Assembly: GCA_963667035.1 (NCBI GenBank)
Contig: OY762964.1
Coordinates: 1,600,001 to 1,664,000, forward strand
Direction: 5' to 3'
Source: Candidatus Cloacimonadales bacterium
GTDB taxonomy: Bacteria > Cloacimonadota > Cloacimonadia > Cloacimonadales > JAFGVF01
DNA length: 64,000 nt
Below, one piece after another: positions 40,845 through 62,546 of the stretch. Made by a program: the position numbers and the translations under genes. Below the pieces are notes generated by a model. The model had not been told where the DNA came from. It saw nothing but the letters and a program-made list of their open reading frames with translations, and did no database searches. Positions within the stretch are counted from its first letter, which is position 1, and each line of letters begins with the position of its first letter.

Positions 40845-40846
40845 AA

Positions 40847-43177: not shown

Positions 43178-43230
43178 ATCAGCTCCTATAAAAACTGGGA
43201 ACGCAGGCTTCTTGCTTGCATCTTTTAGAA

Positions 43231-43251
43231 AGGGCGTCAAGAAGACGCCCT
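43231..43251 (-). terminator. Hairpin/terminator within the late operon
   Basis: AGGGCGTC-TTCTT-GACGCCCT followed by TT on the minus strand. Confidence 0.5.
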
Positions 43252-43269
43252 ACAGTAGAGTGTTTCAGG

Positions 43270-43428
43270 TTAAGCAAATGCATCTTCAACGATTGATTCC
43301 AATATTTCAACCGCTTCATCGTCAATTGTGTTGTCAGTTCTCTTTGCAAGCTCTTTGAGAAGAGTTATAGCGAAAGATGCTAATTTCTCAGCTGGTAGTT
43401 TCATAAGATACTTAAGTATCCATTTCAT
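43270..43428 (-). CDS. 52-aa phage protein missing from the ORF track
   Basis: GGAGG RBS; MKWILKYLMKLPAEKLASFAITSLKELAKRTDNTIDDEAVEILESIVEDAFA. Confidence 0.75.
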   Translation of the reverse strand: MKWILKYLMKLPAEKLASFAITLLKELAKRTDNTIDDEAVEILESIVEDAFA

Positions 43429-43442
43429 AATAACCTCCGTGG

Positions 43443-44129
43443 TTATGATTCAGTAATTGAGATGTCTTTGATTAATTCAAGGGCATCAACATCAAGTGTT
43501 ACTATTTCTATTTCGAAGCCGACAGATTCTGCAGTTAGCATTACCTGACTTGCTTCAGTGATAAAATTGATTGAATAAGAACCCATTATATCAGTCTCAT
43601 CATTAACTTTTACTTCATTGAATTGAGTTAATGTAACTTTCACACCATTCTCAGGCTCTGAAGTACTAGCATTAGTAACAACTCCGGAAACTACAGCTTC
43701 CGAAAGAACTAGGACTTTTGAGTCTACTGTCTTTTCAGCATTGAAAGTAATAAGAGATAAGTCTCCTGATTGGGTGATTGTTTTAGTACTGGCTCTACCA
43801 TCATAAATCCAGAATAAAGTATCTTTTTCGTTTGGATCCAGAAGGATGATATCAATCTGTCCACCGGTCAAGTCTCTCAATACATTAAGCTGTAATGAGT
43901 TTAGCCAGATTCGGTCAATACTTGCAGCTACTTTTTCGCTGACCAAGTAATCTGTTCCATCTGCAAGACGTGCATTCTCGGGGCTTATCTTAAGCTTATT
44001 GCTCTTCACAACATCAACATAAGTAAAACCAAGTACTTCAAGTCCCGCTTGATTTATGTTATCAGGCACAATTTCACTTATATCAATGCTTCCGGCTCTT
44101 TGTCTGATGTAGATATCAAAGTACTTCAT
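43443..44129 (-). CDS. Tail-tube-like paralog with C-terminal Ig-like domain
   Basis: N-terminal half aligns to the 44138 protein; C-terminus VSGVVTNA..EP..GVKVTL...TD..GSY. Confidence 0.6.
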   Translation of the reverse strand: MKYFDIYIRQRAGSIDISEIVPDNINQAGLEVLGFTYVDVVKSNKLKISPENARLADGTDYLVSEKVAASIDRIWLNSLQLNVLRDLTGGQIDIILLDPNEKDTLFWIYDGRASTKTITQSGDLSLITFNAEKTVDSKVLVLSEAVVSGVVTNASTSEPENGVKVTLTQFNEVKVNDETDIMGSYSINFITEASQVMLTAESVGFEIEIVTLDVDALELIKDISITES

Positions 44130-44137
44130 ACATCCTC

Positions 44138-44572
44138 CTAACTAAGCGAAACAAAGCTCTGTGCAGGAGCATTAACTGAAGCTTCTTTAGCACCGGAAAC
44201 TGCTACTTTAAGTGTAGCACCTGACTCAGCAGTAATCTTAGGATAAAGTCTCACATTCTCAAGGTAAGGACAAAGGGTTAGCTGATCGGGATCCACAAAA
44301 AGCACATCGACTTTCTGATTAATCATCAAGCTTCTCATATTATTGTAATCAACTCCACTCACCTTGTCAGCAGTAAAGTCTGTTACAGTCTCCTCGCTAT
44401 CAGTGCTGGAAGTACCATCAGCTAAAGCGTTCTGTGCTTTTGGCGACAGTTCCATTTTGTTCTTCTCAAGAAGATTGTCATACTTAGTCCAACCGGACGC
44501 TAAACCTGCATAAGTTGATGGAGGAGTTGCATCGTGGGCTCTAACATATACTTCTTTATAAAATCTTGCCAT
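44138..44572 (-). CDS. Probable major tail tube protein
   Basis: Size, beta-rich pattern, position between capsid and chaperone/tape measure. Confidence 0.55.
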   Translation of the reverse strand: MARFYKEVYVRAHDATPPSTYAGLASGWTKYDNLLEKNKMELSPKAQNALADGTSSTDSEETVTDFTADKVSGVDYNNMRSLMINQKVDVLFVDPDQLTLCPYLENVRLYPKITAESGATLKVAVSGAKEASVNAPAQSFVSLS

Positions 44573-44589
44573 TTTACACCTCTAATAGG

Positions 44590-44613
44590 TGGGGTATGCA
44601 TATGCATACCCCA
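44590..44613. repeat. Perfect 24-bp palindrome after the capsid gene
   Basis: TGGGGTATGCATATGCATACCCCA. Confidence 0.9.
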
Positions 44614-44619
44614 ATATGT

Positions 44620-45522
44620 TTATGCATCATTATCAGTTGAATCGTACTTAACGTAGATGTACTTGTCTGCGAGCTTTAACTCACCCCAAGCACTCCAGAC
44701 ATTGATGATATCATTGACTTTAGTAGCACTTGGTTGAGTCTTTTGACTGAACTTCTTCTGGAAAGCAGCACAAGCAGCTAACTTTTGATAGAAAATAGCA
44801 CACTTGTTAGTGTTGTTTTCTGCTGTCTCGCTGATAGTACCGTCGTCATCAACCAGAGGGCAATCAGCTTGCATTATAAAGTCAAAGCCATGAGCATGAC
44901 CAACGTAACCGTCATAGATTACACCCTTAGCGTTTGGATTTTTGCTAACATCTGAGAAATTGGAAATGCTAGTTAAATCATTAGCATACTCCGGACTTAC
45001 GATGCAGAATCTATCCTTTTGGGGTGCTTTTTGTTTATCAAGTGCAACCTTAGCTGCTTGAATATCTTCTTCAGTTAATTTTTTGTTAGTTGTATCTGCT
45101 ATAGGCACTAAATGCACAGGTGCTGAGACAGGAACACTATTAACTAAGAGATTCATAATACGTAGATTACTTTCGTCTCTAATAGCATCTTTGGCGTTTA
45201 AGCCCTGCTCATTGGTCTCGGCAATATCAGACTGAGCCTTATCAATGTCATAAACATTGAAAAGATAACCTATCTGAAGATTCAGATTAAGAGTAGATAC
45301 TGATTTACCGGAATCATCTGGTATATCGAACTCTGCCTTCAAAGCTTTCGTTTGAGCCGAATTAGGTATCAGCTGAGGAATGTTGATAGATTCTACTTTA
45401 TTCCCCTGAGCTCTTTTGGTTAAGTCAACAATAGTGTCAATGAGCCACTTCTGGTTTCCAAGACGCTCTCGAATCATTTGCTGGAGTGTTTTATTGCTCC
45501 AAATCTGAGGATTATATCCCAT
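44620..45522 (-). CDS. Major capsid protein
   Basis: PQIWS start, LDKQKAP..DR...VSP, G.VG...GFD; follows the prohead protease. Confidence 0.8.
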   Translation of the reverse strand: MGYNPQIWSNKTLQQMIRERLGNQKWLIDTIVDLTKRAQGNKVESINIPQLIPNSAQTKALKAEFDIPDDSGKSVSTLNLNLQIGYLFNVYDIDKAQSDIAETNEQGLNAKDAIRDESNLRIMNLLVNSVPVSAPVHLVPIADTTNKKLTEEDIQAAKVALDKQKAPQKDRFCIVSPEYANDLTSISNFSDVSKNPNAKGVIYDGYVGHAHGFDFIMQADCPLVDDDGTISETAENNTNKCAIFYQKLAACAAFQKKFSQKTQPSATKVNDIINVWSAWGELKLADKYIYVKYDSTDNDA

Positions 45523-46574
45523 TACTCACCTTCCTTTTGGGTATAAGGATCCCATTCAGATTCAAGTTTCCCTGCAAGGGCCTCATTCTTCTCGCAAAGC
45601 TCAATCCATTCAGCTTGATGATTAAGGTAGTAGCCATAATCTTTTTTAGCTGTAGGAGTACCGCTTTCAACCGGTTCAGTCACATCAAGAGTTGTTACCT
45701 TCTTGCTTGCGAGATACTCGTTGAAAAGCTTCTCATCTTTTGCATAAAGGCTCATTGCAAAGTCCTTCTCACTTGGAAGAAGCTTTTTCTCTGCAATAGC
45801 ACTATTAACTGCGGCTTCAGCATTAAGTTTGTTCTGTCTGGCTTCAATCTCAGTGATTTTTTCCTTCAAAGAACTGTTATCTGCAGCTAACTGCTGCACT
45901 TTTAGGAGAGCTTCCTGTTCGTTGGAGCATCCTAACACTTTTAAGAGTTCGTCCATTTTCAGACCTCCATCTGTTGGTGTATTTTGTATCTCCTCAGGAA
46001 GCGTCCAACCATGACTCATTGCGTATGCAACGATATCGTAGTGTGCCTTTGAGGATTTATTTGCATTAAAAATTGAATCACAGAAACCATTAGTCACAGC
46101 TTCCTTAGCTGCATACCAGGTCTCCTTATCCATTGCTTTAATAAGTTGCTCTTTTGTAAGTTTTGAACGGGTTTGATATGCCATTATCATATCATCTCTA
46201 AACTTGTCTAACAACTCAGCCATTTCTCGAAGTTTCCTTGAATTTCCTCGAGCATCTATCCAAGGATTATGTATCATGAACCTGGCTGTCTCAGCTATTT
46301 CAACACGATCTCCAGCCATAGCTATGATTGTTGCTATTGATGCGACAGTACTATCAATCATTACTGTAATCTCTTTAGGACATGATTTCAGATAGTTGTA
46401 TATAGCCAGCCCCTCATTAATTGAGCCACCCGGAGAACTTAATCTCACCGTTAACTTCTTAGCTGTAATCCTATTCACAGCTTCAGTCACCTTCTGTGCC
46501 GAAACGCCCCAACGTGAAATCTGATCATAAATCCAAATCTCATGCTGACCTTGTTTATTCATGTATACTTTCAT
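45522..46574 (-). CDS. ClpP-type head maturation protease with scaffold-like C-terminus
   Basis: SPGGS, ASIAT, MIHNPW, ETWY, GFCD; coiled-coil tail. Confidence 0.9.
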   Translation of the reverse strand: MKVYMNKQGQHEIWIYDQISRWGVSAQKVTEAVNRITAKKLTVRLSSPGGSINEGLAIYNYLKSCPKEITVMIDSTVASIATIIAMAGDRVEIAETARFMIHNPWIDARGNSRKLREMAELLDKFRDDMIMAYQTRSKLTKEQLIKAMDKETWYAAKEAVTNGFCDSIFNANKSSKAHYDIVAYAMSHGWTLPEEIQNTPTDGGLKMDELLKVLGCSNEQEALLKVQQLAADNSSLKEKITEIEARQNKLNAEAAVNSAIAEKKLLPSEKDFAMSLYAKDEKLFNEYLASKKVTTLDVTEPVESGTPTAKKDYGYYLNHQAEWIELCEKNEALAGKLESEWDPYTQKEGE

Positions 46575-46592
46575 ATCAAAACCTCTGATGCC

Positions 46593-46674
46593 ATTATACT
46601 CAGAAATTTTATTTTATTGAAAAAAGTCCCAAAATGGGACTTTTTCGGACATTTCCGCCTTTTTGCTGTAAGAT
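46593..46674. promoter_or_regulatory. Divergent late promoters around a central dyad
   Basis: AAAAAGTCCCA-AAA-TGGGACTTTTT (46621-46645); TATAAT(-) at 46593-98; TAAGAT(+) at 46669-74. Confidence 0.7.
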
Positions 46675-46699
46675 GACTTCAGAACATGAAGGAGGTCTT

Positions 46700-47089
46700 A
46701 TGGACTTTGAGAAGTTGATAAAAAGCGTGATCGATACGCTTAAAGAATCAAAGAAATTTAAGCAAGTTGAAGAGTATGACGGTCAGTTCGAGATTCTTGA
46801 AAAAATCTCAGCATTTCCACCTGCAGCTTTCGTTGATATCGAAGGTGACACCAACGAAGGTCAAACCCAAATCTCAGAAGATGTAACCCTATCAATTCGC
46901 CTATTTTGCTCTAAACTAATGGGGCAAGTATCAGGCATTTATGCACTACGTGCATACTGCCTAACCCTTAACGGTCTAGCTGTCAAATACAAGGATGAAT
47001 ACATTGGTCGCATGCACTACCAATCTTCTGAGCAACATGTTAATCTTCCGGGAGCAAAGACCTGGAAAATCAATTTCTCAGTGAGGTAA
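46700..47089 (+). CDS. Mu gp37-like neck/tail completion protein
   Basis: VEEYDGQF...PAAFV; GGAGG RBS before ATG 46700. Confidence 0.7.
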   Translation: MDFEKLIKSVIDTLKESKKFKQVEEYDGQFEILEKISAFPPAAFVDIEGDTNEGQTQISEDVTLSIRLFCSKLMGQVSGIYALRAYCLTLNGLAVKYKDEYIGRMHYQSSEQHVNLPGAKTWKINFSVR

Positions 47090-47091
47090 CT

Positions 47092-47475
47092 ATGGATATT
47101 ATCACAGTAACTGAAGTTTTGGATTCTATAGCGAATCAAGCGTTAAGATCCGTTCTAGAAGCAGAAGAAAATGTCCAAGGCTATATTGATTCTCGAGAGA
47201 AATGGGTTGAGGAACAATTAACCGGCACTCTGACTTTCCCATTAACTGAAGTACCGGAAACTCTCAAAATTGCCCTAATTGATATTGTAGCATTTGATTG
47301 CTACAAAAAAAACGATGCAACTGATGTTCCCAACACTGTCAGAGACGCTTATAAAGAAGCCTTAAAAGCCATTAACAACATCAAATCAAACAACACAATC
47401 ATAGACCCAGAGCAACAACCTGATACTTCAATTCAGTTCACAGTTGCCACTAAGTTCTTCACGGAGCCACTATGA
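47092..47475 (+). CDS. Mu gp36-like head-tail adaptor (DUF1320-like)
   Basis: PL..VP..L....DI......Y..AL..I pattern. Confidence 0.75.
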   Translation: MDIITVTEVLDSIANQALRSVLEAEENVQGYIDSREKWVEEQLTGTLTFPLTEVPETLKIALIDIVAFDCYKKNDATDVPNTVRDAYKEALKAINNIKSNNTIIDPEQQPDTSIQFTVATKFFTEPL

Positions 47476-47972
47476 TTATCGACCAATCGACCATGAAGAT
47501 TATCGCTAACACTGCAGCTAAAAAAATTAAAGCAAGAATAAGGGCTGGTGGAATCAAACCACCTTCTAACAATGGTGGTAGAACTCTCATCAAATCAGGT
47601 AAACTAATCAACTCTATAAAATACCGAACCCAAGGACAGAAGGTTATAATATCTGCAGGTGGGGGTCTTAAGTATGCAGCAATCCAACATCAGGGTGGTG
47701 TTATCAGACCTAGAAAAGCAAAGTATCTTGCAATCCCACTGACAAAGGCTGCTCAAGTTAAAAGCCCGAGGGATTTCGAGAACACCTACATACACAAAGG
47801 TGTCATCTTCCTGAAGGTTGATGGCGGTAAAGACATAGCTCTGTATGCTCTAAAGAAATCTGTAACCTTACCGGCACGTCCTTACATGTATCTGACAGAT
47901 GCTGAGATGACAGATATACACAGAATCCTTGGAAAGGAGATGTTAAAAAATGGCACATTCAAAACCGACTAA
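47472..47972 (+). CDS. Mu gpG-like virion morphogenesis protein
   Basis: LIKSGKLINSI, YAAIQHQGG, LPARPY. Confidence 0.85.
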   Translation: MIIDQSTMKIIANTAAKKIKARIRAGGIKPPSNNGGRTLIKSGKLINSIKYRTQGQKVIISAGGGLKYAAIQHQGGVIRPRKAKYLAIPLTKAAQVKSPRDFENTYIHKGVIFLKVDGGKDIALYALKKSVTLPARPYMYLTDAEMTDIHRILGKEMLKNGTFKTD

Positions 47973-48393
47973 ACTCGAAGCTAAAAGATTATATCTCGAA
48001 GGTAACAACATCAACGATATATCTGCAGGAATGGGAATCCCACGCTCAACCATTGAAAAATGGAAACGTAATGAAGACTGGGACTCAGAATTCACGCAAT
48101 ACTCTGCTCATCAGTTGGCAGAAGACATGCAGAAAGAGTTCTATCTTGGTGTCAAGAAGGCAATTAAAGAGGGGAAACTAACTGACCCGGGTACGGCTGA
48201 TGCCCTACTTAAATCAAGTCAATTAATGGCGAAAGTAATCCCAGAGAAAGTGCTACTGTCTAATCTTATGAAAATGCTCAAGGACCAAACTGAATACTTC
48301 CAACGCTTCGCTGATGATGACTTTGTCCTCGAATGGGGAAAGCACCTTCAGGGATTAAGTGAGTTTTTAAGGAAACGCTATGGAACGGAATAA
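47950..48393 (+). CDS. Terminase small subunit
   Basis: AKRLYL HTH with TIEKW..W; overlaps the TerL start. Confidence 0.75.
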   Translation: MAHSKPTKLEAKRLYLEGNNINDISAGMGIPRSTIEKWKRNEDWDSEFTQYSAHQLAEDMQKEFYLGVKKAIKEGKLTDPGTADALLKSSQLMAKVIPEKVLLSNLMKMLKDQTEYFQRFADDDFVLEWGKHLQGLSEFLRKRYGTE

Positions 48394-49876
48394 AATGACC
48401 CCGAAGGAGTTCGATCAGCAGCTTCAAGAACTGATTGCAAATATCCAGCAAAACTGTACTCCATTCAAACACGATACTCCGGAAGAACAGAAAAAAAGAT
48501 TAGAACGTGCGTCCAAGGACTTCTTCTACTTTGCTAAGACCTATTTCCCACACTATATCAAAGCAAATCCATGTAAGAAACACAAAGATATTCACCATAT
48601 CACCGAACGTGAAGGTATTCATGCTGTAGCAGGATTTAGAGGATTTGGTAAAACTACACTGTTAGCTATTATCAAACCTATCTGGCGTGCTCTATTCGGT
48701 CAATCTAACTTTGTCATTGAAGCTGCTGAAAATGAACGACTAGCAACCAATAGGAACAAAGAGATTAAAGCTAATGTTCTCATGAACAATCGTATCATCT
48801 ATGACTTCAAACCACAGGTTGAAGGTGAAGTAAATGACTACATTCTGAGTGGCACAAGGTTTAACTGTAAATTCTTAGCACGTGGCTATCAACAGCCTGT
48901 TCGTGGTCTTTTTCACTATGGTAACAGACCTGATTTCATTGTTGTTGATGATCTTGAATCTCATCTGTCATTCAATCCTCGAATAGCTGATGAGAAGCTT
49001 AAGTTTGTACAGGAAGAGTGCTTTGGTGCTTTCCAAGCCGGACGTGGTACAGTTGTATGGCTTGGAAATCTGACTCATCAAACCTCTGCTTTCTTTCTCT
49101 TTAAAAAGAAGTGTGAGAAAGTAACTTCTAAAGATCTAACTTTCACAATCGTTCGTTCTTATGAAGTTGTGAAAGGTCGTAGAGTACCAACCTGGCGTGA
49201 GGAGTACCCTCTTCAAGTACTTGATAGAATTAAGCATATTATGGGTACTGCAGGTTTCGAGCGTCATTATCAAATGAATCCAATGATTGAAGGGCTTAAG
49301 TTTAAAGCTGAATGGATTAGATATGAGGACTTCCCGACTGAGTTTGAGAAGATAATAACCTACGTTGACCCATCGCTCAGCAGTAAGAAAACTGCTGACT
49401 ACAAAGCTATCATCACGCTTGGATATGCCAAAGGCAAATATTACCTGCTTGATGCCTGGATTAGAAAAGCATCCATCGACACTATGTTGCACTACCTTTA
49501 CAAACTGGATAAGGAGTACAACACACTGATATTCATGGAAGCTAACTTTTGGCAATCTATTCTGTGGGAGTTTATTCCTGATATTTCAACGTCCTATGGT
49601 TATTACCTTCCGGTGTTTGCTGTCATTAATTCAGAGAAGAAGGAAGTACGTATTGAGAAACTTGAACCACCTTTTGAGCGTGCTCGTATCATTTTCCCAA
49701 AAGACATGAATGACGATATCCAACTCCTGATTGAAATGCTACTGGGCTATCCTGACCATCCTCACGATGATGGTCCGGATGCTCTCTCTGGAGCCGTAAC
49801 TGAATGCAAGATAAATCGTGAAGTCTCCTATCAACCGGTAGGACAAAAACGGACAAGTTTTAAACAACTAATGTAA
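48380..49876 (+). CDS. Terminase large subunit
   Basis: RGFGKTT, RPDFIVVDDLE, YVDPS, HDDGPDAL. Confidence 0.93.
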   Translation: MERNKMTPKEFDQQLQELIANIQQNCTPFKHDTPEEQKKRLERASKDFFYFAKTYFPHYIKANPCKKHKDIHHITEREGIHAVAGFRGFGKTTLLAIIKPIWRALFGQSNFVIEAAENERLATNRNKEIKANVLMNNRIIYDFKPQVEGEVNDYILSGTRFNCKFLARGYQQPVRGLFHYGNRPDFIVVDDLESHLSFNPRIADEKLKFVQEECFGAFQAGRGTVVWLGNLTHQTSAFFLFKKKCEKVTSKDLTFTIVRSYEVVKGRRVPTWREEYPLQVLDRIKHIMGTAGFERHYQMNPMIEGLKFKAEWIRYEDFPTEFEKIITYVDPSLSSKKTADYKAIITLGYAKGKYYLLDAWIRKASIDTMLHYLYKLDKEYNTLIFMEANFWQSILWEFIPDISTSYGYYLPVFAVINSEKKEVRIEKLEPPFERARIIFPKDMNDDIQLLIEMLLGYPDHPHDDGPDALSGAVTECKINREVSYQPVGQKRTSFKQLM

Positions 49877-49888
49877 AGGACACAAGAT

Positions 49889-52618
49889 ATGATAAAAGAA
49901 TTTTTTGCACGTATTTTCCCGACTAAATCCCCGGAAATACCCGACACTAAAACGATAGGAGTCACTGCTCCAGATACTTCAGAATACTATTCTCTCGCTT
50001 TTGAACCAAATACAATCAAAGCAGCATTCAGTGCTAAAGAGTATGATGGCTCAATCTCAGACTTACATAATCTCTTCAGCACCTTCCTTGAGGCAGACGA
50101 TAATGCCGGTGGTTGTGTTGAAGTTAGAGAAGAAGCTCTTAAGGCTGCTATTCCGGTAATCACCAACACAGACCTGAGTGATAAACAGCTTGAGGTTCTG
50201 AAGCCAATCCTTGCTAGTATCTGGTCTCCCATGGCTGAAATGGTTGTTGAATACAAGCTCTATGGTCATCTATTCCGTCAGATCATATGGGACTTTGATG
50301 GTTCTATCTGGAAACCTAAAGAATATCGTAGTTACAAAAACGTTGATTTAAAGCTCAAAGATGGTGAACTATGTTTGTACCTTGAAGATGAGAAGAAAAC
50401 GCTCAATCCCCTCAAATTCTTCGCTTTAACAAGAAAGAAATCACCTCTACAAGGATTGTTGAAGTACTACTGCTTCGCTTTTTTTTCAATTAACAACTGG
50501 GCTGCTTTTACCGAAGTCTTCGGGAAGCCATACATTGTGGGTAAATACTCACCACAAGCAACAAAAGCAGATAAAGACAAACTATTTGAGTTTATTTCTT
50601 CTGCAGGTAACGACATGGCAGGTATAATCTCAGAGTCAACTGCTATTGAGTTTATGCACTATGCCGACAAACAAGCTTCTTCTGACCTATATTCTAATTT
50701 AGTAAAATTTACACAGGACCGTGTAACCCGTAGAATCCTTGGTCAAACTCTCACGACAACTGCTGAAAAAACAGGTTCTTATGCTCAAAGTAAGGTTCAC
50801 AATCTTGTCAGAGAAGACATCCTTGCCGGTGACATCAGAGATGCAACAAATCTGCTACAATTCCACATAAACCAAATAGCAGCTATCAACTTAGGAATAG
50901 AAGGCATAGAGATTAAAATTGAGCCAACCTCTCAAAAGGATCTCAAAGAACGTATCAATATCGATGAGAAACTGAACAATATCATTGTGATCACACCTGA
51001 TTACTTCTATGAAACATACGGTATCCCAATTCCCAAGGACGGAGCTAAGTTCAAAGAAAAGGAATCAACCTCCCCTTTTCACGGTAGGGAGCAAGGTAGT
51101 TTGTCAGAGCAAAGCGACAACGGACTTCATCTGCTCCCTACTGGACTGGGTACGCGAGCTTCTAGCTCGCAATCCTCTTTACCTACAGCCTCACAAAAAG
51201 CTTTAGTGTCCGTTAGAAAGCGTGTCGACAACCTAAAATCGTATCAGGAAGTCAAGGATTTGGCATATCCCACCGACTTATATCTTGCTCTGGGAAATGA
51301 CATGTGGAGCATGGTTCTGAATAGCTACATCAAAGTAAGAAAACAACAAGGTAAGAAGACCAAACTGGGTACGCAAGCATCCTTGCTTGCAACTGGGACC
51401 GCAGGCATCTTGCCTGCCACTGGGAACGCGGACATCCCTGTCCGCACTGGGTACGCAGGCATCTTGCCTGCACAATCCCTCGAATTCGAGTTCGAGTTCA
51501 CAGACCAAGATATTGAAGCACTGAACGCTTTCAGATCTGAAAGTTTTATCGTTGCCGGTGTTTCATCTCAAAGTGTCCTAGACCTTGTCAAAAACGAAGC
51601 CGAGAAGGCTTTCACTGAGGGTCTTGATTTCACTGAGTTCCGGAAGAATTTGAAGCTTCAGGGATTCGAACCCAAAAACCCATATTACTTGCGTACAAAC
51701 TTCAATACAGCCTTTGCAAACGCTCAAGCTGCTGCCAAATGGCAAAACATACAAGAGGACAAGAAGCTCTTCCCATACCTCCGTTATGTCGCTATAATGG
51801 ACGGTAAAACAAGAGATGAACATGCAATCCTTCATAATATTATCAGACCGGTTGAAGATCCTTTCTGGAATGACCACACTCCACCGAACGGCTTTAATTG
51901 CAGGTGTGATTTAGAACAGGAAACACCGACTGAAGCTGAAAATGATCCTGGACTAAAGAGACCTATCCCACCAAACACAAATGTCCCACCGGAATGGCGT
52001 CGCAATGCCGGCAAAGACAAAACCCTCTTCGGTTCCTGGTTATCCTGTGAAGATGCTAAGAGTCTTCAGGATGCAAATCCGGGCATCAACCCTATGGCTC
52101 TTAGGCTACATCTTTTCTATGCCTTAAAAAAGCATTGTCCTTTGCTCTACGCAAAGAAAGCTCCTGAGCTTGGGCTGAAGGAATGGGAGAAACTTAAAAC
52201 TCACAAACTACCGGAACTCATAGACACCAATGGAATGACTCGTGAAGACTTGTTTAAGTTATGGAAGAAGAAAATGAATGATAGTATTGTCATCGATGCA
52301 ACCAACGACCCTGTTAAACTAAAGAGCTCAGTTTACAAATGGAATCAAAAAAAGAATGGGAAACTTGAGTATAGCGATAAGAATCTTCAAGGTAGATTCA
52401 GGTACTTGAACTGCATAGAAGACACTCTTAAGAATCCAACGGAGATATGGGGACAAGAGGATAGAAAGCGTTTCAGATATATCAAGAAATACGAAACCGG
52501 TGTTATGGTTGTAACCGAAGTTGAAGCCGATGGCAAAGCTGGTATGTTTAATATCATAGCGTCAAATAAAGGCTATATAAATGCACGCCGTTCAGGCTTC
52601 TTAATCTATTCCGAATGA
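49889..52618 (+). CDS. Fusion of Mu gp29-type portal, MuF and a C-terminal PBECR-like nuclease
   Basis: WAAFTEVFGKP..GKY, ILGQTLTT, GSYAQSKVH; YLRY...DGKTR.EH, PPNGFNCRC; DTLKNPTEIW...RYIKKY. Confidence 0.85.
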   Translation: MIKEFFARIFPTKSPEIPDTKTIGVTAPDTSEYYSLAFEPNTIKAAFSAKEYDGSISDLHNLFSTFLEADDNAGGCVEVREEALKAAIPVITNTDLSDKQLEVLKPILASIWSPMAEMVVEYKLYGHLFRQIIWDFDGSIWKPKEYRSYKNVDLKLKDGELCLYLEDEKKTLNPLKFFALTRKKSPLQGLLKYYCFAFFSINNWAAFTEVFGKPYIVGKYSPQATKADKDKLFEFISSAGNDMAGIISESTAIEFMHYADKQASSDLYSNLVKFTQDRVTRRILGQTLTTTAEKTGSYAQSKVHNLVREDILAGDIRDATNLLQFHINQIAAINLGIEGIEIKIEPTSQKDLKERINIDEKLNNIIVITPDYFYETYGIPIPKDGAKFKEKESTSPFHGREQGSLSEQSDNGLHLLPTGLGTRASSSQSSLPTASQKALVSVRKRVDNLKSYQEVKDLAYPTDLYLALGNDMWSMVLNSYIKVRKQQGKKTKLGTQASLLATGTAGILPATGNADIPVRTGYAGILPAQSLEFEFEFTDQDIEALNAFRSESFIVAGVSSQSVLDLVKNEAEKAFTEGLDFTEFRKNLKLQGFEPKNPYYLRTNFNTAFANAQAAAKWQNIQEDKKLFPYLRYVAIMDGKTRDEHAILHNIIRPVEDPFWNDHTPPNGFNCRCDLEQETPTEAENDPGLKRPIPPNTNVPPEWRRNAGKDKTLFGSWLSCEDAKSLQDANPGINPMALRLHLFYALKKHCPLLYAKKAPELGLKEWEKLKTHKLPELIDTNGMTREDLFKLWKKKMNDSIVIDATNDPVKLKSSVYKWNQKKNGKLEYSDKNLQGRFRYLNCIEDTLKNPTEIWGQEDRKRFRYIKKYETGVMVVTEVEADGKAGMFNIIASNKGYINARRSGFLIYSE
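51364..51471 (+). repeat. Four tandem REP-like hairpin units, in frame (108 bp)
   Basis: ACTGGG-nnC plus hairpin units start at 51364, 51392, 51419, 51446. Confidence 0.9.
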
Positions 52619-53597: not shown

Positions 53598-53625
53598 TTT
53601 TTTCCACTATTTCCCACCAAGTCCA

Positions 53626-54901: not shown

Positions 54902-54905
54902 ATAT

Positions 54906-55520
54906 CTAACTCAACTTAGTTTGATATTTCGACAATTGCAACCCAAGGTCATCCCATGCAAAACTAGGGAAATCAGGCTTATATCCATTTACGTCTCTGT
55001 GAGATAGTATCGTTAACGGTTTGCCAAAGATTGTGTTATATTCAACCATCAACTCATGAAGTGACCTGATTTGCTCAGGAGTTGGGTGCTGATAAAAAAC
55101 ACCTTTCAACTTTTCCCAATGAGTACCTGTTTTAATCTCAGGTTGCACACCCCAGGATACCAAGGCAATTCCAATAGATTGTGAATCCATTGTGTTGCCT
55201 TTTCCGGTATGATTGGCATATCTAATTGTAGGATCAACACATCTATAAATTGTGCCATCTCGGTCAATAATGTCATTGTATACAACTGATCCATCACCCA
55301 CTCCATCACCATCAATATCGTGACGATTATTGAGCCAGTTAATAGCCGATTCAGCACTACCGGAAGCCGTCCAGTGAATCACAATTCGCTTTGGTTTGCT
55401 ATTGTTCCCTTTTGCAAATGAATTATCTAAGAACATTAATCGCTTATCTACAGTCTTCAGAGCCCAATCAAACACAGGGCTGTATTTAAACTCTGTCATT
55501 TTTCTCTTTGCATTTTGCAT
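54906..55520 (-). CDS. N-acetylmuramoyl-L-alanine amidase (Amidase_2-type endolysin)
   Basis: IVIHWTA, IDRDG.I, ANHTG, SIGI, SHRDV. Confidence 0.85.
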   Translation of the reverse strand: MQNAKRKMTEFKYSPVFDWALKTVDKRLMFLDNSFAKGNNSKPKRIVIHWTASGSAESAINWLNNRHDIDGDGVGDGSVVYNDIIDRDGTIYRCVDPTIRYANHTGKGNTMDSQSIGIALVSWGVQPEIKTGTHWEKLKGVFYQHPTPEQIRSLHELMVEYNTIFGKPLTILSHRDVNGYKPDFPSFAWDDLGLQLSKYQTKLS

Positions 55521-55532
55521 TAGTAACTCCTC

Positions 55533-56159
55533 CTACATGCTAGCGTAATTAGTGCCAATCTTAACCCAATCAACATACACTTTCACACCCTTACCTCTAT
55601 CCTCTTCAACTTCTTTTTTCACAGAGATATCGGTGTAAGACTTCTTCTCAATCACCTTCATGTTCTCAAGGATCAATTTCACTGCTTCCTGATATGGCTT
55701 ATCTTTGAACCCGTAAGAACACAGCTTATTAAGCTGGCTCTTGGAAATTTTACCGGATGATTTCACAGTCAGAACATCCTTCAGGATTATCCTGATCTTT
55801 TGGTTCAGATCTGGTTGAAGGTTTTCGACCCATTCGGAAATCATTTGGATACCGGCAGAAACATTGGTGTCGATAGCTACTATTTCAGAGAACTTAGTTT
55901 CAACCTTGATTGTGCCGTCTGCAGAATAATCTACGGCAAAGCCATCCCACTCGGTGAGCCCGGTATCTTTAGCTTTCTTATCAAGGTACTCTTCAGTAAG
56001 ATCTTTTTCAATACCTCGTGAGCGTATCATTGCTTTCACGATTGCCATCCTAGTTTTGTACATCTCACGTACATAGATGTCAGCATCCACAACCTCTGGG
56101 CGGAGTAACTCCGCCCTTACATTGCCATCTGCTGTTTTTATGAACTTAGGTCTGCTCAT
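55533..56159 (-). CDS. DUF3164-like Mu early protein
   Basis: SADG..KV, G.ISK..L..L, ..K.Y pattern; position in the early operon. Confidence 0.6.
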   Translation of the reverse strand: MSRPKFIKTADGNVRAELLRPEVVDADIYVREMYKTRMAIVKAMIRSRGIEKDLTEEYLDKKAKDTGLTEWDGFAVDYSADGTIKVETKFSEIVAIDTNVSAGIQMISEWVENLQPDLNQKIRIILKDVLTVKSSGKISKSQLNKLCSYGFKDKPYQEAVKLILENMKVIEKKSYTDISVKKEVEEDRGKGVKVYVDWVKIGTNYASM

Positions 56160-56779
56160 ACCGGTTGTCCTCCCTGTGTTGCTTCATCTTCAAAACGACG
56201 CTGACGCTCCTTAATGATCTCTTTCAAATCATCGAGATCAGCATCTTGGAAGTAGAGAGCTAGTTTGAAATCTAGCTCTTTCCGGGAACAGTTAAAGAAT
56301 GTGACCATATTCTCTAGATATTGTTCAATCAACAGGTCTTTAGAAGAGCGTTTATTCTCTTTTTCTTGCTGTCTAATCTCTTTGATCTTATCCTTCAGGT
56401 CTGCAGTGTTCATACCTTTGGCACATTCAATCCACTCTTCTTGTTCAGCATAACTCTCAGCTTTCTCTACAAATGGACGCACCATATCAAGACGCTCAAA
56501 ACCAATTTGCTTAAGTTCAGCTTCATCAATATCAAGCTCTTCTGAGTAAAGCTCAAATGCTTTGATAATCTTAGCTGCGAGGGATGATTTTAGGTTATAC
56601 TCAACCTCAACAAAGTTCTTAAAGCTCTTATAGCCTTTGATTTTAAAGCTACCTTTTCGCTTGATATCTGAGAGAACCTGTCCTAACATCAGATACTTCT
56701 CTTCAAGTGTTTTCATCAGGATGTTCACAGACTCGAACTTCTCCTGTGGTGTCATTTCCATGCTCAATTCTTTTTCCAT
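56156..56779 (-). CDS. Hypothetical phage early protein
   Basis: LG..L..IK....F...GYKSF..F motif; GGAG RBS. Confidence 0.6.
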   Translation of the reverse strand: MEKELSMEMTPQEKFESVNILMKTLEEKYLMLGQVLSDIKRKGSFKIKGYKSFKNFVEVEYNLKSSLAAKIIKAFELYSEELDIDEAELKQIGFERLDMVRPFVEKAESYAEQEEWIECAKGMNTADLKDKIKEIRQQEKENKRSSKDLLIEQYLENMVTFFNCSRKELDFKLALYFQDADLDDLKEIIKERQRRFEDEATQGGQPV

Positions 56780-56789
56780 TCATTACTCC

Positions 56790-56975
56790 TTACTTTCTTA
56801 AGTCTTCTATCTCTTCAACTTGCTCAATCTTGGATATTGTTGTGCACCATTGCCTATGATTGAGCCAATCTACCATCTGTCCAAAGTCATCAGCAGTGAC
56901 CTTGGTAACCTTCTTCACAGTATTAGAATCATCACTTGTGTGAGTGATTTCCCATAGTTTAACTCTCATTCTTTG
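56790..56975 (-). CDS. Small hypothetical protein
   Basis: Fills the operon gap between coupled genes; start uncertain. Confidence 0.5.
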   Translation of the reverse strand, partial: QRMRVKLWEITHTSDDSNTVKKVTKVTADDFGQMVDWLNHRQWCTTISKIEQVEEIEDLRK

Positions 56976-57342
56976 CTCCATATGTCTTAAGTACTGCTAT
57001 CAGTTGCTTGCGTTCTTTCTCGGTCAGACTCGTTAATCGAGACTTACCGAACTTCTTATCGATATACTTCTTAACTCGTCCGATGTTCCATCCTGCCAAA
57101 GTCATCAGCTTCAAAAGGTGTTCCTCTTTCGGACTATATTGCTCATCATATTGTTGCCCCCCGGAGATAAGGTTCTTTATCTCCACCAGGCATGGAATTG
57201 ATAATCCTTTGAGTGTCCTACCATAACCCCAGCCTTCCATCATATCTTTACGGTCATCTGCAGAGATCTTGCGTTTACTACATTCGATATTGATGGCAGC
57301 TTTAAGCTTGTTTGATGTTTGAATGTAGTTCTTAGACATCAA
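56959..57342 (-). CDS. GemA/gp16-like protein
   Basis: DDRK.M....G..TLK.LS; L..LT..E...LIA.LK. Confidence 0.65.
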   Translation of the reverse strand: MMSKNYIQTSNKLKAAINIECSKRKISADDRKDMMEGWGYGRTLKGLSIPCLVEIKNLISGGQQYDEQYSPKEEHLLKLMTLAGWNIGRVKKYIDKKFGKSRLTSLTEKERKQLIAVLKTYGAKNES

Positions 57343-57895
57343 GCTTCCCCAATCTTCTTCTAATTTCAGCTATTTCAGCCTTAACTTTTGCCCTTCTTGC
57401 AAGATATTCAGGATCTTTATATGCACTTGGTTTTCTTAATTTTGCTGCTTGTTTTCTATATGTTCGGTAAGTTAGTAAATTATCTGGGACATCATCTTTT
57501 ATCTTAATGATCATGCCGTTGTAATGTTCTATACACCCAATGACTTCTAGACAAAGGCAGTAGCGATAGATTGTTTCTACACTTCTGCTACAAGCTTCTG
57601 CAACTGTTTCAATATATTGCTTCTCAGATGAAGTAACTCTGAGAATTTGATTGATGATAGCAATCTTAGGAACCCAATCCCATCCCTGACTCGGTAGCTC
57701 CAATGGAGCCAATTTATAAATCGTGCGACCGTTAACAACTCCAGCCTTAACAATAATCCCTCTCTTCAAGAAATCGCTGAAATAGCTTCGTACATTCTCA
57801 ACCTTTACTCCGGTAATGCTGCTAGCCTTGTTTGCTGTAAAAGCTCCGGAAGAGTTAATACAGAACTTGCGAACCATCTCCTTATAATTCACCAT
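57332..57895 (-). CDS. Winged-helix-like hypothetical protein
   Basis: Two HTH-like segments; follows MuB. Confidence 0.5.
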   Translation of the reverse strand: MVNYKEMVRKFCINSSGAFTANKASSITGVKVENVRSYFSDFLKRGIIVKAGVVNGRTIYKLAPLELPSQGWDWVPKIAIINQILRVTSSEKQYIETVAEACSRSVETIYRYCLCLEVIGCIEHYNGMIIKIKDDVPDNLLTYRTYRKQAAKLRKPSAYKDPEYLARRAKVKAEIAEIRRRLGKLDV

Positions 57896-58604
57896 TAGCT
57901 ACCTTCCTATCTAATATTTCTAATACTTTTTCTGCTTGTCTAAGATCATAATGCCCTGTTGAGTTCCCTGCATCTTCACCTAATTTTGAAAGAACCCACT
58001 TGATCACACTATCATCAATTTTAAATGAACGCCTTTGATTTCTTAAGAACTCAACAAACTCGGTTTTTGTAAGTCTTTTGAATTCAGTGACCCTAAGCAC
58101 ACGGTTGAAATAATGAGTATTGAATCTGAGGATCTTTCGATCGAGGTTCTCTTCTCCAACGAATACTACTACGCAATAAGTTGTATCAAGTAAGTCTCTG
58201 ATACCCTCAAAGATATCCCTATTCTTTCTGTCCATTCTCACTATGTGGTCTACTTCATCAATATAGATGACTGTATTGGGGTGATTCTCTAAGATCTCAC
58301 GAATCCCTGCTTTCATCATCGAGGCACGGCGTCCAACATGTGGGTATTCATTATGTAGCTTTGAAAGCTGGTGAAACATCCGTTCAAAAAAGCTCAGTGG
58401 TGTGTCTTGGCAGTCTGTGCGTACTAAAACAGACGATTCTTGTATTAGTGACATTTGTGTAGCCCATCTGCTTTTACCTGTAGAGGTGATTCCTTGGACT
58501 ACCATAGCTCCTACAAGCTCATCAACATCTCGTGCAAGTACTTCATTTAAACATCTCTCTGCTTCTTTTGTGTACTTGGTATCAACATAATGCAGATTCT
58601 TCAT
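57882..58604 (-). CDS. MuB-like AAA+ ATPase
   Basis: Walker A GITSTGKS, Walker B IYIDEVD, IRDLLD; coupled to the transposase. Confidence 0.88.
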   Translation of the reverse strand: MKNLHYVDTKYTKEAERCLNEVLARDVDELVGAMVVQGITSTGKSRWATQMSLIQESSVLVRTDCQDTPLSFFERMFHQLSKLHNEYPHVGRRASMMKAGIREILENHPNTVIYIDEVDHIVRMDRKNRDIFEGIRDLLDTTYCVVVFVGEENLDRKILRFNTHYFNRVLRVTEFKRLTKTEFVEFLRNQRRSFKIDDSVIKWVLSKLGEDAGNSTGHYDLRQAEKVLEILDRKVANGEL

Positions 58605-60703
58605 AGTTTGACTCCTATTCCATTTAAGTCTATCTTCTTCAGTTGTTCTTCAGTTAAAATCGAACCTGCTGACTCAGGGGTTAGTTTTGGAGGGGGAACA
58701 TCAGCAGGTTCGAGCGTGAGGGTATTGACCTTGTTTTCTTTCTCAGGAATATGTTCAGGAGAAGGAATTGGTATTTGTTTTGGTTTAGCTTTCTCTTCGA
58801 TGTAATTCTGATCTGTAATCAAGTGTATATCTTCAGGAGTAGTAATCTCTAAAGGATTGCGTTTTACATATAAATCAGTTGCTTCAGACAGCTTTTGAGC
58901 AGCTTTCTTAGCTTCTTTCTCAAGCTTTCGGTGTAGTTTCAAGGTGTCAGCAAGTTGCCTTCTATCAAGTTCTGCAGTATCAGATAGCTTGTAGTGTGGA
59001 TGGTGCAATTTCTTAGCTTCAGCTTGGCAAACAAACTGATCATCTACATAAACAAGCACTGACTTAATTGACCAAGTGTCATATCTTACCAAGGCACGCT
59101 TTCCTACATGATCAACTAATACAGGAGACCAGTAATCTACTTTCTGAACCCTTACACCTTCATTGCTAATTTTAACACTCGCTTTTTCAAGCATAAGGTG
59201 GTTGAGCTGCTTAGAGGAGATTAACCTGGATACTGGAGCTTTAAAAGCTTCAAGTACTTCTAAAGGTTTGCGTCCATCAAGCCCTTTATGAGGTGTCATT
59301 CCGTAAATATTGATCATCCACGCATTAAGACACATCTTAAACTCTTCTATAGGAATCGGAGATCTATCATTCAGGCTTGCTGTGAACTTCTCATTACGTT
59401 TCATAGAAGCTGGTTTTGCCTGATTATTTTCTCCTCTCCAACTCTTATGGAAACGTTCAAAACCGTTCTGCATAGTAAGCCAGAAGCGTTCTATCACTTT
59501 TGACTTGGCGTTATATGGTTGAGAGAAACTGACAACTATTCCAAGTGCATGATAGATACCTTCAAGTTGTTCTTCAGGTAGCTTAGGTGCTTCAAGTCCT
59601 TTTCTGGTTGAGCCTATGAATATCTTGCTTCTATAAGCCTTACCATTGTCTATTTGCACAAGCTTTGGAATGTAACCAGTAAACAAGCAGCTATTTCTAA
59701 AGCTCAGTTTGATTACATCTGCATTCTCTGTACGATTTATACTTAAACCCACACACATCCTACTACCTGCATCAAACCACCCAATAAGTGTTGGACGGAA
59801 TACATTCCCGTTCTCATCCATCACATCAAGGTTCATCTCTTTGCCGTCAGAGACCCACATGTCACCCGGTTGTATCAAGCTCCAGTCTCTTTGAACCGTA
59901 GGAAGAACTTTCTCACGAAAATGCTTTGTACCTTTTCGAAGCAGATTCCATAAGGGACGATTTTTATCCTGCCAATCCTTAACAAAACGATAAAGAGTGT
60001 AACTGGTGACTGGTATCATCTTTCCTGCTAATCGATATTCATGCTCAACTTGAGAGATTGCAGACATGATAGGAATCTCACTATCTCTTTTCAGGTAAGC
60101 CAATAACCTAATCTGCACATCTGGGGGGACATTATGACCGTGAGACCGCTCATAGTTAGGCATCAAAGCCCTGTAATCACCGTTGGCATCATTTAAATCG
60201 TGTTCCCAACGCTCCAATGACCTAGGTGAGATCTTTTTCAATCTTGGTTCTGCCCAACTGTATAGTCCGGCTTTGTAATTCAGCACAAAGTCCTTTCTCT
60301 GTTTGGTTATGCTTCCGGGTGTAATCCCGGCAAGAAAGCGTCGAACAATCTCAGCCTTTACAATAGCCTCACGTTCATGCTTCAGGGTAATCTTGCTCTT
60401 TTTCTCCGGGAAAACAGACAACTCGTTAAGAATTGAATCATCTATACTACTGGGTACGTGAGCTTCAAGCTCACTGGGTCCGCAGGCATCCTTGCCTGCA
60501 TCATTTTGCATTTTGCATTCATCATTTAGCATTTCGACCGGGACGGTCGGTGCTTCAACCCAATACAAGAAAACCTGTCCACCCTTACCACGTCCGGGAA
60601 CAGACTTACTTTCAAGCTTGCCGTTACTACCCCAGTTACGGATAGTCCGAGGGCTTACTCCAAGAGCCTCTGCTGCTTCGTTACAAGTTAACCATTTCTT
60701 CAT
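58601..60703 (-). CDS. MuA-like DDE transposase
   Basis: N-terminal HTH, WVSDG / DNGKAY / KVIERF triad, PHKGL, RYD; ATG 60703 has an RBS. Confidence 0.93.
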   Translation of the reverse strand: MKKWLTCNEAAEALGVSPRTIRNWGSNGKLESKSVPGRGKGGQVFLYWVEAPTVPVEMLNDECKMQNDAGKDACGPSELEAHVPSSIDDSILNELSVFPEKKSKITLKHEREAIVKAEIVRRFLAGITPGSITKQRKDFVLNYKAGLYSWAEPRLKKISPRSLERWEHDLNDANGDYRALMPNYERSHGHNVPPDVQIRLLAYLKRDSEIPIMSAISQVEHEYRLAGKMIPVTSYTLYRFVKDWQDKNRPLWNLLRKGTKHFREKVLPTVQRDWSLIQPGDMWVSDGKEMNLDVMDENGNVFRPTLIGWFDAGSRMCVGLSINRTENADVIKLSFRNSCLFTGYIPKLVQIDNGKAYRSKIFIGSTRKGLEAPKLPEEQLEGIYHALGIVVSFSQPYNAKSKVIERFWLTMQNGFERFHKSWRGENNQAKPASMKRNEKFTASLNDRSPIPIEEFKMCLNAWMINIYGMTPHKGLDGRKPLEVLEAFKAPVSRLISSKQLNHLMLEKASVKISNEGVRVQKVDYWSPVLVDHVGKRALVRYDTWSIKSVLVYVDDQFVCQAEAKKLHHPHYKLSDTAELDRRQLADTLKLHRKLEKEAKKAAQKLSEATDLYVKRNPLEITTPEDIHLITDQNYIEEKAKPKQIPIPSPEHIPEKENKVNTLTLEPADVPPPKLTPESAGSILTEEQLKKIDLNGIGVKL
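60449..60536 (+). repeat. Two REP-like units plus five 7-bp units inside the transposase linker
   Basis: Hairpins at 60449 and 60473, then CATTTTG CATTTTG CATTCAT CATTTAG CATTTCG. Confidence 0.85.
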
Positions 60704-60791
60704 AACTTCTCCAATATAGTGTGTAATAGCCCTCACTGGGTACGCTGGCATCCTGCCGGCACATAACCACCCGGTGAGGGTTGGTTACACA

Positions 60792-61742
60792 CTATCGTTG
60801 GGACGATATTTCTTTATTTGGTTGCTTCTTGGTCGCTTCACCGGGAAGGAGTCCCAGCTCATTCCAACCCTCGCAGGTAGATACTGCATCACCATCCTCT
60901 AAAACAATACCTATTACCATATTCAATAAGTTTAAAGCTGCACCGCGTGCCGTAAGTGTGAGCCTATAAATGTCTACCTCGCTAGGTTCTGGGACGAATA
61001 TACCCCTGTTTTGAATTAGGTCCCTTGTGAGCTTTAAATTACCCAAGTCTGATTCTGCTCTCAACAAGGATATACGCTGATAGAACATATCTGAGACATC
61101 TTCACCATCAATGGTAAATATTGGGTTGCGGATAATAGAACTGGAACCGCAGGCATCCTGCCTGCACTCTTTCCCCTTCTCCACCGCCCTAATAACATAA
61201 AGCTCTCCTTCCTCACTAAGCTTCAGACCATGAGCCTCTAATGCATCATCAAGCTCACTCCAACACTCCATCGGGAGCAGGGATATAGCTTTCGAAAGAC
61301 CTGTTTCCGGAGGAATTGATATTGAATTAAAGATCGGAAGTGCTCTAAACCTATCAAGTACCTGCCGAACTATCTCATTAATACGTTTAGTGACTGAGTT
61401 ATCAGCTCCAAAATCTCCCGTGTAAGGACGCTTAGGTGCGTCAGATGGTGATAGGTCTGCTATTACTGCCTGTCCCTGAATGTCCCTGCCTGTCCCTTCA
61501 GGCTCCGGTATCTCGTAAGGATGCTGTCGAAGCAGCCCAATTATAGGTTCCACGCACCAATAATAGTAAGTTCTGATGCCGCCGTAATCGCAGATTACAG
61601 CTAAAAAACTCACATCGGTTATTTTAAACTCTACCTTACCAAGGTACCAAACTTGACCCTCTTCTAGCTCCACTCCGTGGAGATATACCTTCCCTTCAAT
61701 AATCTCCACTCCATTATCAATTATGCATTTGTCATTCTTCAT
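60792..61742 (-). CDS. Hypothetical early protein containing repeat-derived segments
   Basis: Long ORF with a REP-like unit at 61140, a 10-bp repeat at 61471-61500 and heptamers at its start. Confidence 0.6.
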   Translation of the reverse strand: MKNDKCIIDNGVEIIEGKVYLHGVELEEGQVWYLGKVEFKITDVSFLAVICDYGGIRTYYYWCVEPIIGLLRQHPYEIPEPEGTGRDIQGQAVIADLSPSDAPKRPYTGDFGADNSVTKRINEIVRQVLDRFRALPIFNSISIPPETGLSKAISLLPMECWSELDDALEAHGLKLSEEGELYVIRAVEKGKECRQDACGSSSIIRNPIFTIDGEDVSDMFYQRISLLRAESDLGNLKLTRDLIQNRGIFVPEPSEVDIYRLTLTARGAALNLLNMVIGIVLEDGDAVSTCEGWNELGLLPGEATKKQPNKEISSQR

Positions 61743-61746
61743 TCTT

Positions 61747-62034
61747 CTATCCCCTCCAACCGGAATAAATTGTTCTTATTTGGTTAGTAAAAATGGTGTT
61801 GTGATTCCACTCCACATAGTACTCATCAACAGACATAAACACTTTGAATAACCCTTCTATTGGGTTGTAATGTACTTGTAGGTAAACCTCCTCAGATAGC
61901 CCGGTAACAATACCACGCTGAGTAAACTTAACGTTGAGCTTTGTAGTTTCCCTAATTGCCTCCACAAACGCATTCAGACTCATCTTATCACGCTTCACGT
62001 TCAGTTCTTTCTTCTCGCATCTTACATCTTCCAT
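61747..62034 (-). CDS. Hypothetical early protein
   Basis: Coupled ORF in the early operon. Confidence 0.55.
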   Translation of the reverse strand: MEDVRCEKKELNVKRDKMSLNAFVEAIRETTKLNVKFTQRGIVTGLSEEVYLQVHYNPIEGLFKVFMSVDEYYVEWNHNTIFTNQIRTIYSGWRG

Positions 62035-62270
62035 TATTTCACCCCTCGTGAGAAATCAGTAGATTCATTATCGCTCATGAACTCATTATGAGCTTTCTCA
62101 AGTCTCTGCTGAATGTCCTTGAACTTTCGTTGATATGACTCAACTTCGAGAACTTTATCCTGAAAACGCCCCTTAAGCCTTGCTTCTTCAATGAAGCAGC
62201 GAATTGCAAAAACTATCAGGATGATGCAAATCACTGAAATAGTGATGACGGTTATATATATATCAACCAT
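62034..62270 (-). CDS. Small TM plus coiled-coil protein
   Basis: AGGAGGAG RBS; hydrophobic N-terminus. Confidence 0.6.
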   Translation of the reverse strand: MVDIYITVITISVICIILIVFAIRCFIEEARLKGRFQDKVLEVESYQRKFKDIQQRLEKAHNEFMSDNESTDFSRGVK

Positions 62271-62282
62271 TTGACTCCTCCT

Positions 62283-62546
62283 TTACTGCATACGCGAGCT
62301 TCCGGCTCGCATTTTCCCGGACACAACTGCCAACTCCTCGGAAAAGTTTGTTACTATCCATGAATATACCTTTGGATTGTTACGCCTCCCATTCACCACA
62401 GCTCCAACCATCTGGGGTCCCACTTCACAGACACCTTGATCATGTAGCATGAAGGAGATCCATGAAGGTGAGTATCCTCCATTTTTAAGCACTATTGCCG
62501 CCTTCAACTGCTCCGGTGTGTAATTGACTACTTTTGTCTTTCCCAT
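62283..62546 (-). CDS. Ner/Cro-like regulator candidate
   Basis: LKAAIVL..G.S...I...V..VVNGRR; divergent from CI. Confidence 0.55.
   Translation of the reverse strand: MGKTKVVNYTPEQLKAAIVLKNGGYSPSWISFMLHDQGVCEVGPQMVGAVVNGRRNNPKVYSWIVTNFSEELAVVSGKMRAGSSRMQ

Follow-up and report, generated by a model that had tools for sequence, protein, structure and literature searches.

The DNA analysed here is a 64,000-nt stretch (the window) of contig OY762964.1 from Candidatus Cloacimonadales (GCA_963667035.1, labelled G000 below), and it contains a Mu-like prophage carrying 13 units of a repetitive extragenic palindromic (REP) sequence that also occurs elsewhere in the host genome. In this prophage and in related Mu-like elements, REPs and several unrelated repeat families lie almost exclusively on one phage strand, also where the genes run in the other direction, and this polarity is linked to the GC skew of the phage DNA. 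At slightly better than even odds (about 55%), we propose that mainly one-ended replicative transposition exposes one strand of these phages and that only one orientation of the repeats is captured or survives.

A host REP in a Mu-like prophage

The initial annotation of the window had listed 13 hairpin units at eight loci, all on the + strand, and this was borne out. Each unit is built from a 9-base foot, a 7-bp stem and a 3-4 base pyrimidine loop. The foot has the consensus ACYGGGWMC, and the canonical GT[AG]G tetranucleotide foot is absent; atypical REPs have been described for some subclasses of the REP-associated tyrosine transposases (RAYTs), as far as the available part of 10.1101/279083 goes. 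The covariation of the stems was confirmed: six pairs gave 78 paired cells out of 78, four of them with two-sided changes, a score reached by 0 of 500 shuffles. G.T wobbles are indeed present on the + strand of the units at 43194, 60735 and 62285, and folding favours the + strand for the first two, but not for the third. For 35 distinct phage stems, G.T is preferred over A.C on the foot strand by 22:5. Nine units are translated in frame, as had been claimed: the portal-gpF gene has five of them and MuA two, and one each is in an open reading frame (ORF) of 316 aa and at the end of an ORF of 87 aa. The Pfam domains at residues 62-379 and 567-675 of the portal-gpF protein bracket the linkers that bear the REPs.

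The unit had been considered prophage-restricted. Positions 1-35,400 of the window are indeed free of it, but the rest of the G000 genome has 100 units in 52 clusters, bringing the total to 113; 25 of these clusters are of mixed orientation, often as inverted pairs. A genome scan returned 110 matches, compared to 2 and 1 in two shuffled genomes at equal foot score, and the stems of the window match host stems. The pattern is also matched by 10 of the 11 other genomes of the family and, beyond the family but within the order, by 3 of 49 genomes. Two RAYT-like genes of G000 (1509010-1509564 and 2952203-2952742) have inverted pairs of this REP on both sides, which vindicates the earlier REP/HUH reading of the unit. 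Both exceed the PF01797 cut-off, with the HVH motif and the C-terminal tyrosine visible; on the RAYT model NF047646 they score 70.5 and 68.2 bits, under the cut-off of 80, and many of their homologs carry the label RayT. Because of the 100 further copies on both strands and the flanked RAYT-like genes, the unit is, judged by sequence, a host REP with chromosomal RAYT-like HUH genes and not a prophage-restricted element. A third RAYT (G000 853186-853800) is over the NF047646 cut-off and is flanked by a different, longer repeat, which was not seen in the prophage scan. Host REP pairs also lie inside some host ORFs (e.g. G000 436612-439158 and 2954098-2955777); one is in frame within a restriction-modification-like methylase, and the others probably just extend ORFs upstream of the true start.

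Equal density and random orientation across the host had been named as the mark of an ordinary host REP. Orientation in the host is mixed, as for a host REP, but density is unequal: with 13 units in 29 kb versus 100 in 3,073 kb, the prophage is enriched about 14-fold. Inverted pairs, the layout of REP doublets forming hairpins (REPINs), are also unevenly distributed, since 25 of 52 host clusters are mixed versus 0 of 8 in the window prophage and 1 of 171 in its relatives. The foot begins with ACT in 12 of 12 well-matching phage units, compared to 26 of 65 host units.

Polarity and exchange of repeats in related phages

Relatives were found by portal and MuA searches and comprise prophages of the family and order plus two viral contigs. 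They bear the REP on the matching phage strand, at sites of their own. Of 171 repeat clusters counted in 20 related Mu-like elements, 167 share one phage strand, the one antisense to the early operon; the motif signs were set from the phage + strand, so that this number speaks for uniformity within each family and not for the sign, and the count did not include a second Mu-like type of G007 (four copies), G004b or two partial copies from G008. After a redundancy filter the ratio was 124 of 128. The host DNA flanking the 20 elements has 9 clusters on +, 13 on - and 3 mixed. The strand polarity claimed for the window is thus real and wider than claimed, but it concerns several unrelated families and not one. 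The packaging module, transcribed opposite to the other phage genes, separates DNA polarity from local transcription: all 44 clusters in it keep the strand and are sense there.

A wider set of 104 non-redundant terminase-related loci (at least 10 kb each, from 240 fetched) consists of 23 repeat-rich and 81 repeat-poor loci. Same-strand pairs only were found in 16 of the 23, and 7 were mixed; pairs spanning + and - gene modules were direct in 97 and inverted in 15 cases. Several of these loci are from Bacteroidota and have unrelated repeats. The raw ratio of direct to inverted pairs is not specific, as host windows of G000 gave 80:17 and 8 of 10 rich windows were all-direct, probably due to paralogous coding repeats; our conclusions are therefore based on motif-defined counts and on counts across modules. 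For tandem arrays, a pyrimidine/purine rule performed poorly (21:12) and was discarded.

Alignment of near-identical prophages, proposed earlier as a way to find empty alleles, revealed mostly exchanges: the REP at a site is often replaced by a different repeat. Among 226 distinct pairwise differences that involve repeats, 217 are swaps and 9 near-pure insertions or deletions, in pairs that are not independent and of which a few are noise. The reading frame is kept in 70 of 73 differences within genes, compared to 64 of 153 outside genes. A clean insertion of 45 bases is bounded by a 6-base repeat, four clean cases have flanking overlaps of 2, 2, 6 and 12 nt, and tandem expansions with a 12-nt overlap were seen. 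The REPs in the prophages are single or tandem units; unlike in IS200/IS605 elements, there are no left and right ends bounding a body and no clean insertion after a fixed target motif.

The swapped repeats have no evident sequence in common. The families linked to RAYT genes are A and E, the two being found at different RAYT genes. B/C/D-like, heptamer and G3-like repeats flank host genes for DUF559, PF05635 (four-helix-bundle) and PF13366 (GxxExxY) proteins on both strands, associations seen by visual inspection of 16 loci; no host partner gene was assigned to families F and H. On the G006 chromosome (L206-L225), long intergenic gaps often contain several family C repeats on one strand, with 250-500 bases between copies, resembling arrays with spacers.

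The two portal linkers are hypervariable. They are short in phages of hosts without a match to the REP pattern (G012, G022, G033) and contain a GTAG-type REP plus heptamers in G056. The earlier idea of an element that colonises the phage and adds peptide sequence at linkers is supported by these linkers, but the element is a host repeat, not specific to the phage, and its arrivals are mostly replacements. The G005 prophage carries the REP variant that flanks the RAYT genes of G005 itself, and repeat acquisition is therefore repeated and local. Possible non-Mu prophages in G004, G008 and G009 have few repeats. MuA of G004 and G006 prophages (L108-L113, L124) has long tandem repeats of five or six residues after the helix-turn-helix (HTH) domain, at the position matching the REP insert of the window.

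GC skew and the possible route of acquisition

The GC skew at four-fold sites is lower in genes of the + module than in - genes in nine of nine Cloacimonadota elements, in 38 of 48 more distant loci and in 75 of the 104 non-redundant loci. In the nine, the + module thus has the C-richer sense strand, a pattern that would fit a fork entering from the repressor end with the minus strand as its leading strand. A skew contrast of at least 0.25 was found in 14 of 16 all-direct (polarised) loci versus 0 of 7 mixed loci (Fisher p 1.5e-4; rank test p 0.0018), with a threshold chosen post hoc and loci that are kin. Reversed skew goes along with a reversed repeat sign in L176 and L259, and in the second Mu-like type of G007 the skew changes midway and most repeats change sign too, leaving five contrary units. 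The skew contrast of the G000 host chromosome is only 0.08. The four-fold skews of L259, L322, L323 and L325 are extreme, with a magnitude of 0.7-0.8.

According to the route we propose, Mu-like phages of this group gain REPs and the repeats of other gene-plus-repeat modules from the resident host. Units are gained where they are tolerated, just upstream of ribosome-binding sites (RBSs) and in protein linkers, and selection keeps the in-frame versions within genes. New units mostly replace older ones, as tracts of 30-150 bases joined at short shared ends. The data show that the repeats are of host origin, enriched, polarised, swapped, kept in frame and linked to skew; one-ended replication, the exposure of a single strand, the enzymes and the chemistry are inferred. 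Replicative transposition mainly from one end would leave one strand single-stranded for long, giving rise to the strong GC skew. The repeat strand that bears the foot would thereby come to lie on the opposite, C-rich side, namely on the new lagging strand.

Two ways to the observed sign can be envisaged. The repeats may be captured, with the new lagging strand taking up single-stranded repeat fragments by joining or annealing, which we regard as possible but doubtful. Annealing at short shared ends is known from oligonucleotide recombineering; such annealing, or capture via the 3' ends of the lagging strand, would give replacements of the observed sign. TnpA-REP acts on single strands and holds cleaved single-stranded DNA that can be resolved by an added 3'-OH, according to the part of PMC8266576 available. 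Or, somewhat less probably, it is a matter of survival: copies with the active strand on the exposed template might be cut or removed by host enzymes. For IS200/IS605 elements, PMC3333891 describes, in the part available, that only the 'top' strand is recognised, at the lagging-strand template. Cutting of that orientation would also account for the missing inverted pairs. The two versions are not separable from sequence alone. Extended to its full breadth, the proposal would be that, when Mu-like phages of Cloacimonadota and Bacteroidota replicate, their DNA is rewritten in a strand-specific manner, with RAYT, DUF559, four-helix-bundle and GxxExxY fragments as interchangeable cassettes entering fixed sites on the new lagging strand; we consider this unlikely as it stands. 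If true, it would provide single REP units with a general way of moving that needs no REPIN, it would unite the four kinds of module in one class of mobile repeat systems, and the phage would gain a source of variation in linkers and expression.

Several observations weigh against one-ended replication as the cause of the polarity, beside the post hoc threshold and the kinship of the loci. The skew contrast of the window prophage itself is modest (-0.22 versus -0.05), and locus L195 is fully polarised, yet has a contrast of 0.05. The G007 second-type copies (units of contrary sign: three in the late and two in the early half) and G004b are partly mixed in orientation, the GTAG copies of G056 are 3 on + and 2 on -, and the window prophage has a GTAG-footed hairpin (43232..43253) that breaks the polarity. 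We know of no enzyme that acts on heptamer arrays. In phage Mu, replication has a left-end preference. The Mu papers PMC3325207 and PMC3334882, in the parts available, describe a fork at each end and nothing beyond that. In IS200/IS605, the active strand enters the lagging-strand template (PMC3333891, available part), whereas the sign suggested for the phages is the opposite. Finally, comparison of strand and replichore, also proposed earlier, revealed no bias in G000 (one-orientation clusters: 12 leading, 15 lagging) or in 60 sampled pieces of the G006 host (A 14:20, C 36:34, B 5:9, heptamers 22:11, F 7:2). A generic bias of host forks was hence rejected, and a phage-specific condition must be assumed.

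Other explanations have been considered. Transcription could set both skew and orientation if one long leftward transcript or R-loop extended across the entire phage, packaging module included. The majority of phage genes are on the - strand with the repeats antisense to them, the exceptions in the + module of L199 and L205 have the antisense form, and single clusters of the G000 host lean antisense (12:5). We nevertheless judge this improbable in view of the 44 sense clusters in the + module, of the minus genes of L176, whose C-rich sense strand is opposite to a transcription effect, and of family C in the G006 host, which is mostly sense (24:10, in hand-picked regions). No more probable is that the repeats are DNA marks of the phage, selected for orientation and serving in packaging, nuclease protection or binding of gyrase or nucleoid proteins, an option already raised by the initial annotation. 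The 14-fold enrichment, sites that are refilled rather than emptied and a polarity independent of gene strand would suit such marks, but unrelated sequences stand in for each other at one site, the sign of the polarity can reverse, and repeats are scarce in many relatives: G005b, G005c, G007c, G012 and G033 carry 0-1 clusters, and 81 of the 104 loci are repeat-poor.

A dedicated diversifying system, in which phage or host proteins rewrite fixed sites with host cassettes to tune expression and linker length, would explain the hot spots beside RBSs and in linkers and the large excess of swaps over plain indels, and conserved early genes without assigned function are present. Tolerated sites by themselves explain the hot spots, though, and no HUH, reverse transcriptase or recombinase family was found among the scanned phage ORFs (42 window ORFs with PHROGs, 31 with Pfam and 18 ORFs of G007b); a mobiliser encoded by the phage was rejected on these scans, and we take such a system to be quite improbable. 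The same scans gave no reverse transcriptase as expected for a diversity-generating retroelement or retron-like system among the phage ORFs, the host genome not having been searched for one. The least probable of the four is a founder effect with recombination, in which a few old insertions fixed the orientation and exchange between co-resident prophages or within a phage copied it. Hosts do carry several related prophages, identical cassettes are common to both G007 phage types, and the tandem expansions with 12-nt overlap fit as well. But each phage has the variants of its own host at sites of its own, and separate lineages with unrelated repeats follow the same rule; a founder effect accounts for many swaps, not for new polarised acquisitions, and was weakened already by these observations.

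With the REP/REPIN-RAYT systems, as far as described in the available parts of PMC3116915, PMC3333891, PMC8266576 and 10.1101/279083, the repeat shares the short foot 5' of a hairpin, about 100 copies per genome, inverted pairs and a Y1 HUH gene flanked by repeats; in-frame insertions in linkers are also known (10.1101/279083). It differs in that it has no GT[AG]G foot, is polarised over a whole mobile element and is exchanged with repeat families not linked to RAYTs. In addition, the phage units occur singly or in tandem, are intact and seem to have been gained recently; known singlets, by contrast, are described, in the part of PMC3116915 available, as defunct remnants. IS200/IS605 elements (IS608, ISDra2) are alike, as far as the sources available describe them, in the strand-specific recognition of hairpins and in an orientation tied to the direction of replication, but here there is neither an IS body nor paired ends, replacement prevails and host forks have no bias. 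Rickettsia palindromic elements and the small dispersed or short tandem repeats of cyanobacteria also enter coding sequences in frame and add peptide, on chromosomes; they are not known to show element-wide polarity or family swapping. Chi and KOPS are each one short motif with one host enzyme and a chromosomal polarity that follows the direction of replication, whereas here several repeat families are polar in the phage only. The REP unit is of a known kind; no description of element-wide polarity, family swapping or the link to skew was found in the literature searched, which covered few subscription journals.

The spread of REPs is described as poorly understood (PMC8266576, available part). 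The prophages hold many recent, intact single units of fixed strand, near-identical sister alleles and a measurable correlate in skew, which makes REP mobility testable with regard to strand, junctions and host gene. They tie several lone modules of a gene plus flanking repeats to one behaviour and offer a test of the idea, put forward in the available part of 10.1101/2024.07.17.603846, that REPs are bait for cutting invading DNA. Host repeats also add new peptide to essential phage proteins.

The prophage and its single features

PHROGs and Pfam matches in the prophage include MuA, MuB, portal, terminase, capsid, tape measure and repressor; MuA, MuB and Mu-type head genes are all present, which assigns it to the Mu-like phages. 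Late genes are on -, the packaging module on + and early genes on -. The features are compiled below.

Features of the window; positions are those of the 64,000-nt stretch
Feature	Position	Strand	Remarks
Mu-like prophage, ~29.0 kb	35448..64000	.	PHROGs/Pfam matches; ends from comparison with relatives
Left copy of 30-bp direct repeat flanking the prophage	35419..35448	+	right copy at G000 1664425-1664454
REP unit	43194..43219	+	just upstream of likely RBS of 267-aa ORF; inside the ORF only if a TTG start is used
GTAG-footed hairpin	43232..43253	-	foot on strand opposite to REPs, followed by T residues on -
Packaging module	46634..52618	+	transcribed opposite to remaining phage genes
REP unit	51145..51170	+	in frame, first portal-gpF linker (~aa 419-427)
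Four tandem REP units	51364..51471	+	in frame, second portal-gpF linker (~aa 492-528)
Two tandem REP units	53545..53596	+	between two minus-strand early genes
Two REP units	60449..60499	+	in frame in MuA, after N-terminal HTH domain
Short heptamer tract	60500..60533	+	REP polarity, in frame in MuA; type that flanks four-helix-bundle genes (in relatives)
REP unit	60735..60760	+	upstream of probable MuA start; coding only if first ATG is used
REP unit	61140..61165	+	in frame in 316-aa early ORF
Divergent REP unit	62285..62310	+	last nine codons of 87-aa early ORF

The GTAG-footed hairpin possibly serves as a terminator. The heptamer family G2 counts 2/0 in the window prophage. In the window, Rfam found nothing but tRNAs. 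Contigs from the same sample match the window without differences or alternative alleles and are not independent data. Isolated phages gave distant portal matches only, at 25-28% among the matches listed.

The repressor end of the prophage is about 420 bases past the edge of the window (G000 1664424), and the right copy of the 30-bp flanking repeat adjoins a host repeat of about 120 bp with some 35-40 copies. The ends of phage Mu are TG...CA. The relatives resemble Mu and other transposable phages in MuA/MuB, the Mu-type portal, gpF and gp36 and, in five of them (G005, G007a, G007b, G008b, G009b), in what look by eye like 5-bp target duplications. They differ by ends that begin with TA instead of TG (the same five), the inverted packaging module and the repeat cassettes, and the window copy by its apparent 30-bp duplication. 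The prophage ends in L037-L052 start with TAAT and finish with a C run plus TTA.

Family searches gave neither an explanation for a conserved 207-aa early protein nor a family for the early gene at 56156-56779, which has a solitary, 76% identical copy among host genes (G000 2862753-2863379). At 49889-52618, one 909-aa protein fuses portal, gpF and a PBECR2 nuclease-like domain, and this fusion is retained in most relatives.

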